From Escherichia phage RB3: a DNA stretch of 64,000 bases. The stretch lies in sequence record KM606994. One strand, given 5' to 3'. The position numbers were made by a program, and so were the translations under genes. The notes under the pieces were generated by a model. That model did no database searches. It was not told the DNA's origin and was given only the letters and a program-made list of their open reading frames with translations. Shown in pieces: positions 3,684 to 56,014 of the stretch. Position 1 is the first letter of the stretch. Every line of letters begins with the position of its first letter.

Positions 3684-5192
3684 ATGGATATTAAAGTACA
3701 TTTTCACGACTTCAGTCATGTACGCATCGATTGTGAAGAGAGCACGTTCCACGAATTAAGAGATTTCTTTTCGTTTGAGGCCGATGGATATAGATTTAAC
3801 CCTCGCTTCAGATATGGCAACTGGGATGGACGAATCCGTCTGTTAGATTATAATCGTCTTCTTCCATTCGGCTTAGTCGGGCAAATTAAAAAGTTCTGTG
3901 ATAACTTTGGCTATAAAGCTTGGATTGACCCGCAAATTAACGAAAAAGAAGAATTATCAAGAAAAGATTTTGATGAATGGCTTTCTAAATTAGAAATCTA
4001 TTCAGGAAATAAAAGAATTGAACCGCACTGGTATCAAAAAGATGCAGTGTTCGAAGGATTAGTTAATCGTCGTAGAATTCTTAATCTTCCAACATCTGCA
4101 GGTAAATCTTTAATTCAAGCTTTGCTTGCGCGATATTATTTGGAAAATTATGAAGGTAAAATTCTTATCATTGTTCCAACAACTGCTTTAACAACTCAGA
4201 TGGCTGATGACTTCGTTGACTATCGTTTATTCAGTCATGCAATGATAAAGAAAATCGGCGGCGGAGCATCAAAAGATGATAAATATAAAAATGATGCACC
4301 AGTCGTTGTTGGTACATGGCAAACTGTAGTAAAACAACCAAAAGAATGGTTCTCACAATTTGGAATGATGATGAATGATGAATGTCATCTTGCTACAGGA
4401 AAAAGTATTTCATCTATCATATCAGGTTTAAATAACTGCATGTTCAAATTTGGTCTATCGGGTTCATTACGTGATGGCAAAGCCAATATCATGCAGTATG
4501 TTGGAATGTTTGGTGAAATATTTAAACCAGTAACGACTTCTAAATTAATGGAAGATGGACAAGTAACTGAGCTAAAAATTAATAGTATTTTTCTTCGCTA
4601 TCCCGATGAGTTCACTACTAAATTAAAGGGAAAAACTTACCAAGAAGAAATAAAAATTATTACTGGGCTTAGTAAAAGAAATAAATGGATCGCTAAATTA
4701 GCTATTAAGCTTGCACAAAAAGATGAAAACGCTTTTGTCATGTTTAAACATGTATCGCATGGTAAAGCTATTTTCGATTTAATTAAAAATGAATACGATA
4801 AAGTTTATTACGTATCAGGGGAAGTTGATACCGAAACCCGCAACGTAATGAAAACCTTAGCTGAAAATGGTAAAGGAATAATTATAGTAGCTAGTTATGG
4901 TGTATTTTCTACTGGTATTTCAGTTAAAAATCTGCATCACGTTGTTTTAGCGCACGGTGTTAAATCTAAAATTATTGTATTGCAAACAATCGGTCGTGTA
5001 TTACGTAAGCATGGTTCTAAAACAATCGCAACAGTCTGGGACCTCATAGATGATTGTGGTGTTAAGCCAAAATCTGCTAATACTAAAAAGAAATATGTTC
5101 ATTTGAACTATCTTTTAAAACACGGCATTGATCGTATTCAGCGCTACGCAGATGAAAAATTTAATTACGTAATGAAAACAGTTAATTTATAA
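3684..5192 (+). CDS. uvsW: UvsW DNA helicase
   Basis: 502 aa; helicase motif I PTSAGKS and motif II DECH. Confidence 0.9.
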   Translation: MDIKVHFHDFSHVRIDCEESTFHELRDFFSFEADGYRFNPRFRYGNWDGRIRLLDYNRLLPFGLVGQIKKFCDNFGYKAWIDPQINEKEELSRKDFDEWLSKLEIYSGNKRIEPHWYQKDAVFEGLVNRRRILNLPTSAGKSLIQALLARYYLENYEGKILIIVPTTALTTQMADDFVDYRLFSHAMIKKIGGGASKDDKYKNDAPVVVGTWQTVVKQPKEWFSQFGMMMNDECHLATGKSISSIISGLNNCMFKFGLSGSLRDGKANIMQYVGMFGEIFKPVTTSKLMEDGQVTELKINSIFLRYPDEFTTKLKGKTYQEEIKIITGLSKRNKWIAKLAIKLAQKDENAFVMFKHVSHGKAIFDLIKNEYDKVYYVSGEVDTETRNVMKTLAENGKGIIIVASYGVFSTGISVKNLHHVVLAHGVKSKIIVLQTIGRVLRKHGSKTIATVWDLIDDCGVKPKSANTKKKYVHLNYLLKHGIDRIQRYADEKFNYVMKTVNL

Positions 5193-5207
5193 GGGCTTCG
5201 GCCCTTT
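5193..5207 (+). terminator. RNA hairpin after uvsW (weak terminator or stability element)
   Basis: AAGGGC-UUCG-GCCCUU stem-loop, short U tract. Confidence 0.35.
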
Positions 5208-5217
5208 GGAGAAAAAG

Positions 5218-5448
5218 ATGTTACTAGAATTTAAACAATTTCTTTATGAAGCTTCTATTGATGAATTTATGGGTAAAATTGCCTCTTGCCAAACATTAGA
5301 AGGTCTAGAAGAACTTGAAGCTTATTATAAGAAAAGAGTTAAAGAAACTGAATTAAAAGATACTGATGACATCTCTGTGAGAGATGCTTTGGCAGGAAAA
5401 AGAGCTGAATTAGAAGATTCAGACGATGAAGTAGAAGAAAGCTTTTAA
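5218..5448 (+). CDS. uvsW.1: UvsW.1 small acidic protein
   Basis: ORF track start at 5206 is TTG; ATG at 5218 with GGAG 6 nt upstream gives 76 aa. Confidence 0.6.
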   Translation: MLLEFKQFLYEASIDEFMGKIASCQTLEGLEELEAYYKKRVKETELKDTDDISVRDALAGKRAELEDSDDEVEESF

Positions 5449-49307: not shown

Positions 49308-50423
49308 ATGGAAAAATTTATGGCAGAGTTTGGACAAGGATATGTCCAAACGCCATTTTTATCGGAAAGCAATTCAGTAAGATATAAAATAAGCATAGCG
49401 GGTTCTTGCCCGCTTTCTACTGCGGGGCCATATGTTAAATTTCAGGATAATCCCGTTGGAAATCAAACATTTAGTGCAGGTCTTCATTTAAGAGTTTTTG
49501 ACCCTTCTACAGGAGCATTAGTTGATAGTAAGTCATATGCTTTTTCTGCTTCAAACAATACAACATCTACCGCTTTTGTCAGTTTCATGAATTCTTTGTC
49601 AAACAATAGACTTGTTGCTATATTAACTAGCGGAAAGGTTAATTTTCCTCCTGAAGTGGTATCTTGGTTAAGGGGAGCAGGAACTTCAGTTTTTCCATCA
49701 GATTCAGTATTGTCAAGATTTGACGTGTCATATGCTGCTTTTTACACTTCTTCTAAAAGAGCTATCGCATTAGAGCATGTTAAACTAAGTAATAGAAAAA
49801 GCACAGATGACTATCAAACTATGTTAGATGTTGTATTTGATAGTTTAGAAGACGTCGGAGCTACAGGATTTCCTAAAAGAACATACGAAAGCGTTGAGCA
49901 ATTTATGTCTGCGGTTGGTGGAACTAATAACGAAATTGCGCGATTGCCAACTTCAGCTGCTATAAGTAAACTTTCTGACTACAATTTAATTCCTGGTGAT
50001 GTTCTTTATCTTAAAGCACAACTATATGCTGATGCTGATTTACTTGATCTTGGAACTGCAAATATATCTATTCGTTTTTATGATGCATCAAATGGATATA
50101 TTTCCTCGACCCAAGCTGAGTTTACTGGGCAAGCTGGGTCTTGGGAATTAAAAGAAGATTATGTAGTTGTTCCTGAAAATGCAGTAGGATTTACGATATA
50201 TGCACAAAGAACTGCCCAAGCAGGTCAAGGCGGCATGAGAAATTTAAGCTTTTCTGAAGTATCAAGAAATGGCGGAATTTCGAAACCTGCTGAATTTGGT
50301 GTCAATGGCATTCGTGTTAATTATATCGGTGAATCCTCTTCACCTCCAGATATAATGGTACTTCCTACACAGGCATCGTCTAAAACTGGTAAAGTGTTTG
50401 GACAGGAATTTAGAGAAGTTTAA
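49308..50423 (+). CDS. 35: long tail fibre hinge protein gp35
   Basis: 371 aa; terminator downstream. Confidence 0.85.
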   Translation: MEKFMAEFGQGYVQTPFLSESNSVRYKISIAGSCPLSTAGPYVKFQDNPVGNQTFSAGLHLRVFDPSTGALVDSKSYAFSASNNTTSTAFVSFMNSLSNNRLVAILTSGKVNFPPEVVSWLRGAGTSVFPSDSVLSRFDVSYAAFYTSSKRAIALEHVKLSNRKSTDDYQTMLDVVFDSLEDVGATGFPKRTYESVEQFMSAVGGTNNEIARLPTSAAISKLSDYNLIPGDVLYLKAQLYADADLLDLGTANISIRFYDASNGYISSTQAEFTGQAGSWELKEDYVVVPENAVGFTIYAQRTAQAGQGGMRNLSFSEVSRNGGISKPAEFGVNGIRVNYIGESSSPPDIMVLPTQASSKTGKVFGQEFREV

Positions 50424-50427
50424 ACTG

Positions 50428-50456
50428 AGGGAGCCTTCGGGTTCCTTTTTTCTTTA
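50428..50456 (+). terminator. intrinsic terminator after gene 35
   Basis: GGAGCC-UUCG-GGUUCC followed by TTTTTTTCTTT. Confidence 0.7.
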
Positions 50457-50462
50457 TAAATA
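50455..50462 (+). promoter_or_regulatory. late promoter of gene 36
   Basis: TATAAATA ~24 nt upstream of gene 36 ATG, just after the gene 35 terminator. Confidence 0.7.
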
Positions 50463-51144: not shown

Positions 51145-54100
51145 ATGGCTACTTTAAAACAAATACAATTTAAAAGAAGCAAAACCGCAGGTCAACGTCC
51201 TGCTGCTTCAGTATTAGCCGAAGGTGAATTGGCTATAAACTTAAAAGATAAAACAATTTTCACAAAAGATGACTCAGGTAGTGTTATAGAATTAGGTTTA
51301 AAATATGGAGGAACAATTGATGGTTCTTTAACTGTTAATGGAAGCATAATTGGAAATTTAACAGGTAACGCTGCAACCGCAACGAAATTAAAAACAGCAC
51401 GAAAGATTAATGGTATATCTTTTGATGGGTCAAAGGACATTACCCTAACTCCATCTGACATAAATGTAAATAGTACAACATTTATAAAAAATAATGGTGA
51501 ATTACCTACTGATGCTAATTTAGATACGTATGGGCCCATTGAAGAATATCTTGGTGTTTGGTCGAAATCTACTTCAACAAATGCGCAACCAGCAAATAAA
51601 TTCCCAGAAGAAAATGCCGTAGGTGTACTAGAAGTATTTGTGGCCGGCCAATTTGCTGGCACTCAGCGTTATACTGTAAGATCTGGTAACGTCTATATTC
51701 GTTCCTTATCTGCTAAATGGAATGGCGTCGATGGTCCATGGGGTCCGTGGCGCAATATTCAAACTGGCACACGCCCACTATCAACTACGCTAGACTTGAA
51801 TACTTTAGGTGATGCTTCTCATTTTGGGTTATGGCGAAATAGTTCAAGTTCCATTGCATCATTTTCTCGAAATTACCCAGAAGAAGGTGGTCTCGCGCAA
51901 GGTCTTTTAGAAATTTATGAAGGTGGTAACTATTCTCGCACGCAACGTTATACTACCCGAATGGGTGTTGTATATGTTCGTTGTCTTGCTAGTGCATGGG
52001 ATCCAGAAGCTCCGAATTGGGGACCGTGGCAACAAGTAGGTATGGTTACTCCAAACACATTCTATGACGGGGATCTTAATAATTTTCGTTCTCCTGGCTT
52101 GTATAACATTTTAGGGACTGATGCCGTTATTAACCGTCCAGTTGCAGAAGGTGTTCCGGTTGAGATGACCGGATTGCTTGAGGTTAAACAGCGTGCTTCC
52201 GGTGGCGCTATTTTCCAACGTTTCACTACCGCAGGAACGGGTGCAACTACGCGATCTCGCGTGTTTGAACGTGCGATGACAAATAACATCTGGGGAAATT
52301 GGTACGAAGTATATACGTCCTATTCTATGCCGATCACTCTGGGTATGGGTGGTGTTAAATCTCAATTAGCGGAGCTAGACTGGCAAACCTTTGATTTTGT
52401 CCCTGGTAGTATGTTTAGTGTTCCTTTGAACAAAATAAAGAACATGCCAGCAAATATGGATTGGGGTGCGATTGACGGAAACTTGGTTATGTTTTCTGTC
52501 GGTCCTAGCGAACACACTAGCACAGGGCGTACTGTTCAGGTTTGGCGTGGTACTGTATCCCAGACAAACTACCGTTATTTTGTCGTTCGTGTGTTCGGTA
52601 ATTCTGGAAATATAACTTGTACAGTTCGACGCGTTGTTCTTGAAGATGGTAGCCACAAATGGACAGCGCAACAAGATTTTAATGGTGCAGTTAACTTCGG
52701 TGCTCCTACCAATTTTAACTCTACTGTTAACCTTAATAACACTACCACATTTAAAACAGAAGTTAAATTCCGCTCGTTGAATGCATTCCGTATGTATGGC
52801 GGAAAATTTGGTGCATTTTTACGTAATGATGGAGAGAGTCTTTATATTCTTTCCACCGACGAAAATGATCAAGATGGAAACTTTAATACAAATAGACCTT
52901 TCCGTTATGAATTAAGAACTGGTGATGTTACTTTGGGTGGTACTAGTGGTGCTAACGTTTTAAAATTAAAACGTGATTCTCTCACCGCATTTTTTGGTGG
53001 TGATATTAACATGAAAGGCTTGATGACTTTTGACGCCGGGCGTTTAGGATCACGAGATTATTTTAAATTTAACCATTGGGGTGATAGTAATAATGGTCGT
53101 GATAACATCATTCAGTTAGAAGATAGTCAAGGCGCTCATTTTTCCACTGAACGTACTTTAGCGACAGGTGCAATTAAAACTCGTTTCTTTGGCGAAACAT
53201 TCACTGATGGTACATTATACCTAAATCAGATGAATAATAGTTCTGAACGATTCTCTATTAATAATTGGGGAAATTCAGAAGTTGGTCGCCCGGCAGTGTT
53301 GGAAGTCGGTGATTCTAAAGGTTATCACTTCTATACGGAACGCAGGACAGATAACAGTTTGATGTTTGATGTTGCTGGCGATTTTACTGCGCATGGACCT
53401 TCCGGGATTACTATCAAAACCTCTACTGGTGCTCGCCATATCTGGTTTAGAGATGATAGCGATGCAGAAAAGGCTGTTATCTGGGCTACAGATGAGGGTA
53501 TTTTACATATACGAAATAATCATGGTGGTTCATTTAGTCATCACTTCCAGGGTGCAATGATTAAAGCGGGAGAGCGTGTTCCTTATGCCGGAGATCAAGG
53601 GCTTATTCGCGGTGAAGTTTCTGGTGGTGCTTATGTGAATTGGAGAGACCGCCCTGCTGGTTTGTTGCTTGACTGTCAACAAAGCGTTGATAGTGCTCAT
53701 GCTATTTGGAAAGCGGTTGATTGGGGGCGTAACTTCATCGCTGCTTTGGACGTTCATTGTCCCGGTGATAGTAATAATACTGCGGCAGCGATTCTCCATG
53801 TTCAGTCTGCTGATTATCAATTCCATGCAAGTGGAGAATTTCATGCCACTGGTAACGGAAACTTTAACGATGTTTATATTCGATCAGACCGTCGCCTCAA
53901 AGAAAACATCGAAGATTATATAGGAAATGCGTTAAGTTTGATTGGCAAACTGAAAGTGAAAACTTACGATAAAGTTAAATCTCTTAAGGACCGTGAAATT
54001 ATCGGTCATGAGATCGGCATTATCGCACAGGATTTACAGGAAATATTACCAGAAGCTGTAAAATCTTCAAAGGTTGGCAATCTTGATAATCCAGACGATG

Positions 54101-54237
54101 TTCTGACAATTTCTAACTCTGCTGTGAATGCTCTTTTAATTAAGGCTATTCAGGAAATGAGTGAAGAAATTAAAGAATTGAAAACGCCTCTCTTTACTAA
54201 AATTATTCGCAAAATTAGTAAATATTTTAAATTCTAA
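51145..54237 (+). CDS. 37: long tail fibre distal subunit gp37, T2-type with C-terminal intramolecular chaperone domain
   Basis: 1030 aa; N-terminus [13 protein letters not shown] as T4 gp37, remainder diverged; C-terminal ...[11 protein letters not shown]... auto-processing motif. Confidence 0.9.
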
Positions 54238-54271
54238 CAACAAGGGGGAAATGCCCCCTTTGGAGAAAATT

Positions 54272-55054
54272 ATGGCAGTAGTTGGTGTTCCTGGTTGGAT
54301 TGGTAGTTCATCCGTAAATGAAACAGGACAACGATGGATGAGTCAAGCAGCTGGTCAATTAAGATTAGGTGTTCCTTGCTGGATGAGTCAATTTGCAGGT
54401 CGCTCAAGAGAAATTATTCATACACTTGGAGCAGACCATAACTTCAATGGTCAATGGTTCCGAGATAGGTGTTTTGAGGCAGGTAGTGCACCTATAGTGT
54501 TTAATATCACTGGAGATTTAGTATCATATTCTAAAGATGTTCCTTTATTCTTCATGTATGGAGATACACCGAATGAATATGTTCAGTTGAATATACACGG
54601 CGTAACGATGTATGGACGTGGCGGTAATGGCGGTAGCAATAGTCCTGGTTCAGCTGGAGGTCATTGTATTCAAAACGATATTGGTGGGAGACTAAGAATT
54701 AATAATGGTGGAGCTATTGCTGGAGGTGGCGGCGGTGGCGGCGGCGGATATTATTCTCCTTTTTCACAAATGAGATTGACTTTTGGAGGTGGCGGCGGGC
54801 GTCCGTTTGGCGCACCGGGCGGATCTATTGATATGCAATCAGGAGCAACTGCTGGTACTATTTCTGCGCCTGGCGCAGGGTCTGTGAACGGTATCTATAG
54901 CGGCGGTGGCGGTGGCGAAGTTGGCTCCGCAGGAGGTAGATGTAATATTCGTGGTCAAGGATCTGAATACGATGGCGGAGCTGCTGGTTATGCCGTCATA
55001 GGGTCTACACCGACATGGCAAAACGTTGGAGCAATATATGGTCCAAGAGTATAA
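54272..55054 (+). CDS. 38: gp38 tail fibre tip adhesin, T2-type with glycine-rich motifs
   Basis: 260 aa from ATG with GGAG SD (track start 54251 lies inside a hairpin); poly-Gly tracts separated by variable segments. Confidence 0.8.
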
Positions 55055-55084
55055 TTTGAATAAATATCCTTAAAAGGAGGGTCT

Positions 55085-55741
55085 ATGGCAGCACCTAGAA
55101 TATCATTTTCGCCCTCTGATATTCTGTTGGGTGTTCTAGATCGCTTGTTCAAAGATAACGCTACCGGGAAGGTTCTTGCTTCCCGAGTAGCTGTCGTAAT
55201 TCTTTTATTTATGATGGCGATTGTTTGGTATAGGGGAGATAGTTTCTTTGAGTACTATAAGCAATCAAAGTATGAAACATACAGTGAAATTATTGAAAAG
55301 GAAAGAAATGCACGCTTTGAATCTGTCGTCCTGGAACAACTCCAGATAGTTCATATATCATCTGAGGCAGACTTTAGTGCGGTGTATTCTTTCCGCCCTA
55401 AAAACTTAAACTATTTTGTTGATATTATAGCATACGAAGGAAAATTACCTTCAACAATAAGTGAAAAATCACTTGGAGGATATCCTGTTGATAAAACTAT
55501 GGATGAATATACAGTTCATTTAAATGGACGTCATTATTATTCCAACTCAAAATTTGCTTTTTTACCAACTAAAAAGCCTACTCCCGAAATAAACTACATG
55601 TACAGTTGTCCATATTTCAATTTGGATAATATCTATGCTGGAACAATAACCATGTACTGGTATAGAAATGATCATATAAGTAATGACCGCCTTGAATCAA
55701 TATGTTCTCAGGCGGCCAGAATATTAGGAAGGGCTAAATAA
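55085..55741 (+). CDS. t: holin T
   Basis: 218 aa; single N-terminal TM segment and large periplasmic domain. Confidence 0.9.
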   Translation: MAAPRISFSPSDILLGVLDRLFKDNATGKVLASRVAVVILLFMMAIVWYRGDSFFEYYKQSKYETYSEIIEKERNARFESVVLEQLQIVHISSEADFSAVYSFRPKNLNYFVDIIAYEGKLPSTISEKSLGGYPVDKTMDEYTVHLNGRHYYSNSKFAFLPTKKPTPEINYMYSCPYFNLDNIYAGTITMYWYRNDHISNDRLESICSQAARILGRAK

Positions 55742-56014
55742 TTATTTGTTCGTATACATCTCTAGATATCGATATACACCCTCAAAACCCTCGTTGAATT
55801 CGTCGATGAGGGTTTTCTTATCTTCTTGAGTTAATTCAGAAACAATTTTACGGAATGAATTCTGATTTAATTTTCTACCTTCATGCGTTACTCCAATCTC
55901 ATTCAGAAATGCAATAAAATTAGCACGATTCTCAACAATATCTTCTCTGGAAAATTTAATCAAAATAGACGCAACAGTAATAATTTCACGAACTGTATCA
56001 ATGTTTTTATTCAT
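55742..56014 (-). CDS. asiA: anti-sigma-70 factor AsiA
   Basis: 90 aa; MNKNIDTVREIITVASILIKFSREDIV... Confidence 0.9.
   Translation of the reverse strand: MNKNIDTVREIITVASILIKFSREDIVENRANFIAFLNEIGVTHEGRKLNQNSFRKIVSELTQEDKKTLIDEFNEGFEGVYRYLEMYTNK

Follow-up and report, generated by a model that had tools for sequence, protein, structure and literature searches.

Assignment of gene 38 of T-even coliphage RB5 to the T6-like, Tsx-binding adhesins of the long tail fiber tip

The name gene 38 and the slot between genes 37 and t are shared by two different proteins of the T-even phages, the receptor-binding gp38 adhesins of T2, T6 and their relatives and the gp38 assembly chaperone of T4; a reading frame in this slot therefore raises the question of which of the two it encodes and, in the case of an adhesin, which receptor it recognizes and how this specificity is exchanged. 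In the stretch of phage DNA analyzed here (64,000 nt; the window), gene 38 occupies positions 54272..55054 on the plus strand and encodes 260 aa plus stop. In the long-tail-fiber operon it directly follows gene 37 and precedes the holin gene t, with the gene order 34-35-36-37-38-t followed by asiA on the opposite strand. Its product is almost certainly the gp38 receptor-binding adhesin of T-even coliphage RB5, a monomer that caps the long tail fiber.

Three overlapping megablast searches found the whole window to be 100% identical to positions 104395-168394 of RB5 (KM606995.1), that is, to its last 64,000 nt; the match to RB7 was as good as that to RB5, and RB6, RB9, and RB10 were near-identical, with marginally lower scores over the first 25 kb. 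Gene 38 is the same as that of RB5 in 783 of 783 nt and is also 100% identical in RB6, RB7, RB9, and RB10 (GenBank KM606995-KM606999); the genomes of these RB phages appeared in Yaung et al. (2015; PMC4293622), and the records of all five phages label the gene "tail fiber adhesin, 38". A g38 with at least 90% nucleotide identity is present in approximately 180 phage records. The gene is already known: it has been deposited, annotated, and studied experimentally as RB5 g38 (Trojet et al., 2011; PMC3157838), the same gene without any difference. The main text of a bioRxiv receptor-screen paper mentions none of RB5, RB6, RB7, RB9, RB10, and RB3.

The open reading frame runs from ATG to TAA over 260 codons. 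Its start at 54272 is supported by a GGAG Shine-Dalgarno sequence 6 nt upstream (54262-54265), by residues M1-A2, which are unchanged across six homologues, and by agreement with the RB5 annotation. An alternative in-frame ATG at 54251, the start annotated in PST, would extend the protein by seven residues to 267 aa; it was rejected because T6 and RB33 do not have it, because it falls in the loop of an intercistronic hairpin, and because no ribosome-binding site stands at a proper distance from it. Two minus-strand open reading frames that overlap this region (54839-55021, 60 aa; 54988-55152, 54 aa) are likely to be chance frames in a G+C-rich stretch, and neither is annotated in RB5.

The predicted protein matched two Pfam families over almost its entire length, Gp38_N (PF21721; aa 1-42, E = 1.3e-19, 70.4 bits) and GP38 (PF05268; aa 47-260, E = 9.4e-71, 238.6 bits), with a cut-off of 25 bits in each case, as well as PHROG 2056, "tail fiber protein; host specificity" (E = 1.3e-111). 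Structural homologs were found in the receptor-binding domain of PP01 gp38 (9V85; E = 7.7e-80) and in S16 gp38, whose structure was solved in complex with the tip of gp37 (6F45_D; E = 1.5e-49); the present protein has its glycine motifs in register with both. By these similarities the protein belongs to the T2/T6/S16-type adhesin family, and a fold of the polyglycine-II (PGII) sandwich type would be expected from its homology to 9V85 and 6F45. A single-sequence AlphaFold2 model of the 260-aa protein was unusable (mean pLDDT 30, pTM 0.20), and a search of NCBIfam returned no match for this gp38 or for T4 gp38.

The anatomy of the protein was read from an alignment of the present gp38 with those of T6, PST, T2, PP01, and S16; the boundaries between glycine-rich motifs (GRMs) and hypervariable segments (HVSs) are an operational reading of this alignment according to the scheme of Trojet et al. 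(2011). All features given below are on the plus strand. The N-terminal attachment domain (aa 1-45; 54272..54406), which includes the Gp38_N match, is identical in amino acid sequence to its counterparts in T6 and PST and contains three tryptophans, W9, W22, and W37, that are invariant in RB5, T6, PST, T2, PP01, and S16; in the S16 crystal structure, the gp37 trimer offers three symmetry-related pockets that take up the conserved tryptophans, which are located at the apices of the three N-terminal helices of gp38 (PMC6851490). The central segment (aa 46-112; 54407..54607) is a conserved scaffold that can be aligned with the beta-helix domain in 9V85 and 6F45; it is 96-99% identical to PP01 and PST on the amino acid level but only 87% to T6, so that its history is unlike that of the flanking segments.

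In the C-terminal specificity domain, five glycine-rich motifs alternate with four hypervariable segments, which is the published gp38 layout of a conserved scaffold with variable loops (PMC3157838, PMC12032242, PMC6851490). GRM1 (aa 113-121, MYGRGGNGG; 54608..54634), with the invariant residues G115, R116, G117, G118, and G120, is followed by HVS1 (aa 122-128, SNSPGSA; 54635..54655), which is 100% identical to T6 and PST and 11-38% identical to T2, PP01, and S16. The GRM2 region (aa 129-159; 54656..54748) ends in a tract of nine glycines that is aligned with PGII helix 3 of S16 (151-GGGGGGGG-158; helix designation from PMC6851490). HVS2 (aa 160-171; 54749..54784), 92% identical to T6, 75% to PST, and 0% to T2, PP01, and S16, holds the differences at S165, Q166, and M167; GRM3 (aa 172-184; 54785..54823) has G172-G176, R177, P178, G180, and G183 invariant. 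The longest variable loop region, HVS3 (aa 185-210; 54824..54901), is 81% identical to T6, 77% to PST, and 23-31% to T2, PP01, and S16, and is followed by GRM4 (aa 211-222; 54902..54937) and by HVS4 (aa 223-234; 54938..54973), with 100% identity to T6 and PST and 8-25% to the three distant homologs. The protein ends with GRM5 (aa 235-244) and a conserved C-terminal strand (aa 245-260; together 54974..55051), in which G239, A241, V242, G244, P247, W249, N251, V252, G253, I255, and G257 are invariant. Across the distant homologs T2, PP01, and S16, the GRMs are 40-94% identical in amino acid sequence, vs. 0-38% for the HVSs.

The glycine richness of this domain is far beyond chance for the genome. 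Glycine accounts for 63 of the 260 residues, but is unevenly distributed (11.6% of aa 1-112 vs. 33.8% of aa 113-260), and the richest 148-aa stretch reaches 34.5%; of the window's 50 open frames with a length of 150 aa or more, the runner-up has 14.9%, and the maxima have a median of 8.1%. Runs of at least five glycines occur only three times in all six frames of the window, and all three are inside gene 38: G151-G159, which precedes YY; G172-G176; and G211-G215, which precedes E. The G+C content is 51.5% in the C-terminal half of the gene, compared to 35.7% in the window, and the glycine codons of this half are GGT (17), GGC (17), GGA (12), and GGG (4), with an enrichment of GGC when genes 35, 36, 37, and t are taken as the reference (Fisher p = 0.003). 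The preliminary description of this locus had proposed, from the DNA alone, a 260-aa product in place of the T4 form of approximately 183 aa, repeated polyglycine tracts (one of nine and two of five residues) separated by variable segments in the manner of receptor-binding gp38 adhesins, and a coding sequence rich in GGT and GGC; the reading frame, the tracts as quoted, the family and structure matches together with the slot between genes 37 and t, and the codon counts bear out each of these points.

The fiber protein on which gp38 would sit is encoded immediately upstream. Gene 37 (51145-54237, plus strand; 1030 aa) is annotated in RB5 as "long tail fiber distal subunit" and can be divided at a conserved ...DVYIRS|DRRLK junction into a predicted mature part, the trimeric distal half-fiber (aa 1-914; 51145..53886), and a C-terminal intramolecular chaperone of the Peptidase_S74 type (116 aa plus stop; 53887..54237; PF13884 at aa 914-973, E = 7e-15) that can be aligned with its counterpart in S16 gp37 (6F45_A). 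Cleavage after S914 would expose the docking site for gp38. Upstream of the junction, gp37 is shorter by approximately 75 aa than in S16, T2, and PP01, so that the docking geometry of the S16 crystal may not apply here in every detail. A GC hairpin (GGGGG-AAATG-CCCCC; 54244..54258, plus strand) is predicted between genes 37 and 38, ahead of the GGAG motif, with a folding energy of -13.9 kcal/mol for the 45-nt upstream stretch that contains it; hairpins that differ in the sequence of the stem are found in the same place in T6, PST, RB33, T2, PP01, S16, and T4. A late-promoter consensus of its own is lacking in gene 38; the nearest upstream TATAAATA is located in front of gene 36 (50455..50462, plus strand) and, judged by this position, genes 36-37-38 are probably co-transcribed. 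The number of TATAAATA matches in the window was not above chance, nor was that of sigma-70 promoter-like sites between 50300 and 56200 (19 vs. a shuffle expectation of 17.4), and an Rfam scan of the whole window gave no match at gathering thresholds.

These elements can be combined into a working model of the fiber tip. After gp37 has trimerized, its last 116 aa, the intramolecular chaperone, would be removed behind S914, by analogy with T2 and S16; the three-helix N-terminal domain (aa 1-45) of one gp38 monomer would then dock on the tip of the trimer via W9, W22, and W37, as has been shown for S16. The central beta-helix probably bears two long excursions, in which the GRMs would form polyglycine-II helices that are packed in three layers, as a "PGII sandwich"; this arrangement has been shown for S16 and PP01, and 50-67% sequence identity suggests it for the present protein. 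Structural roles of the tryptophans and of the GRM glycines have been described in S16 (PMC6851490) and in PP01 (PMC12892980). The HVSs between the motifs would form loops at the distal end, in contact with the extracellular loops of an outer-membrane protein; in the case of this allele, the nucleoside channel Tsx has been shown genetically in RB5 to be the receptor (PMC3157838), and the contact between the loops and Tsx is proposed. Host range changes either by point mutation in HVS2 and HVS3 or, as was shown with RB5 and RB32/33, by recombination that replaces the HVS block in its entirety.

The family resemblance extends over all named adhesins, and the subtype is decided by the variable segments. 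Overall amino acid identity decreases from PST (95%) and T6 (93%) to PP01 (67%), T2 (51%), and S16 (50%). The T6 protein, a Tsx adhesin encoded in the same gene order, is identical in the N-terminal domain, HVS1, HVS4, GRM2, GRM3, and GRM5; it differs by its length of 261 aa, with one additional glycine after H109, by the beta-helix segment (73% identity in nucleotides, 87% in amino acids), and by nine substitutions in the C-terminal domain, chiefly in HVS3, while the distal part of T6 gp37 is only approximately 44% identical to the gp37 encoded here. Relative to the Yersinia phage PST, whose DNA is 99-100% identical to the window over positions 54108-54557, the C-terminal domain shows 11 substitutions that fall mostly in HVS2 and HVS3 (S165P, Q166R, M167I, D187N, A194G, A199S, A202S, G207I, S210N, G213N, and T246A); the same figure of 11 residues separates RB5 gp38 from PST in the account of Trojet et al., and the PST/T6 differences which these authors name (Q167R, M168I, and G208I in T6 numbering) are found at the expected sites (PMC3157838). 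PP01 gp38 (9V85; PMC12892980) has the same architecture of beta-helix, PGII sandwich, and loops, with a beta-helix segment that is 96% identical; however, its attachment domain is 53% identical, its HVS1-4 are 11%, 0%, 26%, and 25% identical, and its receptor is OmpC, not Tsx. S16, a Salmonella OmpC binder of another genus (Gelderlandvirus), shares the three tryptophans and the glycine motifs in register, including the long polyglycine helix 3, but its HVSs are unrelated (6F45; Dunne et al., 2018, PMC6851490). The T2 protein, a FadL/OmpF adhesin that gave the family its name, has the same architecture but belongs to a different N-terminal subtype (64% identity), and its set of HVSs is not shared, with identities of 38%, 0%, 23%, and 8% for HVS1-4. 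A comparison of the variable segments with T2, T6, and S16, as had been suggested for this locus, therefore yields a match to T6 (81-100%) and not to T2 or S16 (0-38%), and by its sequence the specificity domain is best described as T6-like, not T2-like. The receptor of this allele is Tsx, on the evidence of one paper, in which RB5 is placed among the T6-like adhesins (PMC3157838), and of sequence identity to T6.

Other readings of the gene have to be weighed against this assignment. If the product were a T4-type gp38, it would be a non-structural chaperone of gp37 assembly that is absent from the virion, as would be suggested by its name, by its slot between genes 37 and t, and by the legacy label "distal long tail fiber assembly catalyst" that persists in the T6 record MH550421 and in other T6-like records. 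The T4 protein, however, is an assembly chaperone of 183 aa, which a note in the T4 record describes as a non-virion protein; it matched no Pfam family and has no detectable similarity to the 260-aa protein (BLASTP E = 1.9), which matches the adhesin families, and the gp37 encoded here carries an intramolecular chaperone of its own. In T6, moreover, g38 amber mutants build virions of normal morphology that cannot adsorb (PMC3157838), so that a T4-type function can be given next to no credence; in the nearest relative, the dependence of adsorption on gp38, on which the preliminary description had made its reading contingent, is in effect already seen. That the adhesin should be of the strict T2 subtype and recognize FadL and/or OmpF is very improbable as well: Pfam family, gene position, and architecture are all as in T2 gp38, yet against them stand the low overall identity, the unrelated HVSs, the lack of any exact nucleotide run of at least 17 nt shared with T2, and the receptor reported for RB5, with plating already reported to be lost on tsx deletion and to be normal on fadL and ompF deletions. 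The preliminary designation as a T2-type adhesin thus holds as a family name and fails as a statement of specificity, since the HVSs are T6-like and the RB5 receptor is Tsx rather than FadL or OmpF.

Within the T6-like, Tsx-binding assignment, a broader or second specificity has also been considered, in which the RB5-specific residues of HVS2 and HVS3 would confer a distinct range of Tsx alleles or a weak second receptor. The residues that set RB5 apart from T6 and PST (S165, Q166/M167, D187, A194, A199, A202, G207, S210, and G213) are concentrated in these two segments, in keeping with the 11 and nine substitutions noted above; PST gp38, which is only a few residues apart (including Q166R, M167I, and G207I), depends in addition on OmpA, FhuA, and LPS and infects Y. 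pseudotuberculosis; and single changes in HVS3 can switch the receptor, as in RB68 from OmpF to OmpW. Trojet et al., on the other hand, give Tsx for RB5, which is not among the phages named as needing two or more receptors, and a broader specificity is accordingly judged unlikely. RB5 has been reported to form plaques on Y. pseudotuberculosis with a frequency that is small yet detectable, an observation that would fit a distinct range or a second receptor. Equally doubtful is a compound proposal that joins such a role of the HVS2 and HVS3 residues to a separate idea, that the four GCGGCGGTGGCGG-type GRM repeats may act as points of slippage or crossover by which the loops are shuffled; if true, the second receptor and the shuffling of loops would be increments within a well-mapped system.

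The second question raised by the locus is how its specificity is exchanged. A scan of the g37-g38 locus in 150-nt windows for nucleotide identity to relatives identified a natural mosaic. Gene 37 is closest to T6 and PST (98-100%) up to approximately position 51700; from 51708 to 52307, identity to T6, PST, and RB33 falls to approximately 70-76%; positions 52308-53057 are T6-like again (92-99%); 53208-53657 resemble only RB33 (81-94%); 53658-54107 are diverged from all relatives (62-77%); 54108-54557 correspond to PST; and the specificity domain of gene 38 shows an identity of 83-89% to T6 and PST. In gene 38 itself, attachment domain, beta-helix, and HVS block each have different nearest relatives. 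Exchange of this kind has been reproduced experimentally: plasmid crosses between the g38 genes of RB5 and RB32/33 yielded 14 recombinants that grew on RB5-resistant cells, demonstrating replacement of the whole HVS block, and the two chimeras with the smallest RB32 segment used the RB32 receptors OmpA and LPS (PMC3157838), which locates the specificity determinant within the block of approximately 400 bp that contains the four HVSs. No viable phage was recovered with any of the tested deletions of GRM2, GRM3, or GRM4, or of HVS1, HVS2, or HVS3 (PMC3157838). Recombinational host-range switching, which the preliminary description had proposed, is thus established for gene 38, having been shown for RB5 g38 itself; the proposed route by crossover in the glycine-motif DNA is the part for which the single published test gave no support.

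That the GGT- and GGC-rich glycine-motif DNA might serve as the main crossover substrate, so that individual HVSs are shuffled, is reportedly a proposal of Tetart and colleagues from 1998. It is in keeping with the four copies of a GCGGCGGTGGCGGCGG-like 18-mer in the GRM DNA, with a better conservation of GRM DNA than of HVS DNA on the nucleotide level in all comparisons, and with the natural mosaic of the locus; phage Mi, which combines a T6-like HVS1 with novel HVS2-4, and a gp38 swap between CM8 and EV240, in which only the part from HVS2 onward was exchanged (2026 preprint), point in the same direction, and the partial swap indicates that exchange within the gene takes place in other T6-like phages. 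The one experiment on gene 38 speaks otherwise, however: none of the 14 chimeras of RB5 with RB32/33 had crossed over in the interval from GRM1 to GRM5, and Trojet et al. suggested that exchange takes place preferentially in the conserved flanks (PMC3157838). The distribution of exact matches between RB5 and RB33 agrees with the flanks; the specificity domain holds a single match of at least 17 nt, of exactly this length (aa 130-135), whereas the N-terminal half of g38 contains exact runs of up to 58 nt. A preferred role of the glycine-motif DNA in crossover is therefore unproven and, for gene 38, appears possible but somewhat unlikely, and replacement of the HVS block as a whole is the form of exchange that has been demonstrated.

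No feature of gene 38 departs from the description of the gp38 adhesin family, and the present allele has already been dissected, with Tsx as its receptor and an HVS block that is sufficient for the switch to OmpA/LPS; its confirmation adds no new biology. The correct label is "T6-like, Tsx-binding adhesin", neither an adhesin of T2 specificity nor an "assembly catalyst". In most T-even phages, host range is determined mainly by the gp38 adhesins, of which the Tsx type is reported to be the commonest predicted class (PMC12032242); these adhesins serve the prediction of phage receptors and the engineering of phage host range.

By sequence identity, gp37 (gene 37, 51145-54237) is a patchwork relative to its counterparts in T6, PST and RB33. 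Up to about position 51700 the gene shares 98-100% identity with T6 and PST. Identity to T6, PST and RB33 alike then falls to approximately 70-76% (51708-52307); the next segment, 52308-53057, is T6-like, and 53208-53657 resembles only RB33. The stretch around the chaperone junction (53658-54107) has diverged from all three phages (62-77%), and from 54108 on, into gene 38, identity to PST is 100%. An alignment of the gp37 tips (A2; window 53395-53886 against the comparison loci L003, L006 and L007 for T2, PP01 and S16) places about 75 additional residues, the GDNDTGL... block, directly before the S|DRR chaperone junction in T2, PP01 and S16; this block is absent from gp37 of RB5, T6, PST and RB33. 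Despite conservation of the three gp38 tryptophans, the gp38-docking surface on gp37 of T6-like phages may therefore not be the one observed in the S16 crystal.

A Pfam "Gp34_trimer" domain was matched in gp37 at aa 506-587 (window 52660-52905; E 5e-15), and a C-terminal segment of the protein weakly matched the solved gp34 structures 4UXE and 5NXF; these gp34-type matches reflect repeat modules common to the proximal and distal half-fibres. The hinge connector gp35 (gene 35, window 49308-50423) matched the Pfam family ILEI (PF15711) at aa 58-112 (E 6.7e-8; score 33.4 bits, cut-off 27). ILEI denotes the "interleukin-like EMT inducer" domain, an unexpected name for a tail-fibre hinge protein.

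Genes 37 and 38 are separated by an intercistronic GC-rich hairpin on the plus strand (GGGGG-AAATG-CCCCC, 54244-54258), directly 5' of the gene 38 ribosome-binding site. T6, PST, RB33, T2, PP01, S16 and T4 each carry a hairpin at the equivalent position; the stem sequences differ, and UUCG-type loops are frequent among these relatives. Stable intercistronic hairpins are known in T4, and the 37/38 hairpin looks like them. The ATG at 54251, the gene 38 start in the PST annotation, falls within the hairpin loop and is spurious. Two terminator-like hairpins were also found on the plus strand: one of 14 pairs (55784-55816), located about 40 nt 3' of holin gene t and lying within asiA, a convergent gene, at its 3' end, and one of 9 pairs (50427-50448) between genes 35 and 36, immediately 5' of the late-promoter consensus match TATAAATA at 50455.

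The RB33 record (KM607001.1, about 4840-5331) annotates gp38 as a truncated protein of 146 aa, followed by a 390-nt gap without annotation; the remainder of the full-length adhesin, ending in ...YGPRV, runs on in a different frame and begins at GRM1, the first glycine-rich motif. Either a sequencing error introduced a frameshift in the G-rich tract, or the gene is a real pseudogene; RB33 g38 has been taken as identical to the functional g38 of RB32 (Trojet et al.; PMC3157838). The adhesin gene of T6 (MH550421.1, 8728-9513) and T6-like adhesin genes in several other GenBank records continue to carry the label "distal long tail fiber assembly catalyst". On T6-like adhesins this label is a carry-over of the function of T4 gp38, and it could mislead automated host-range prediction.
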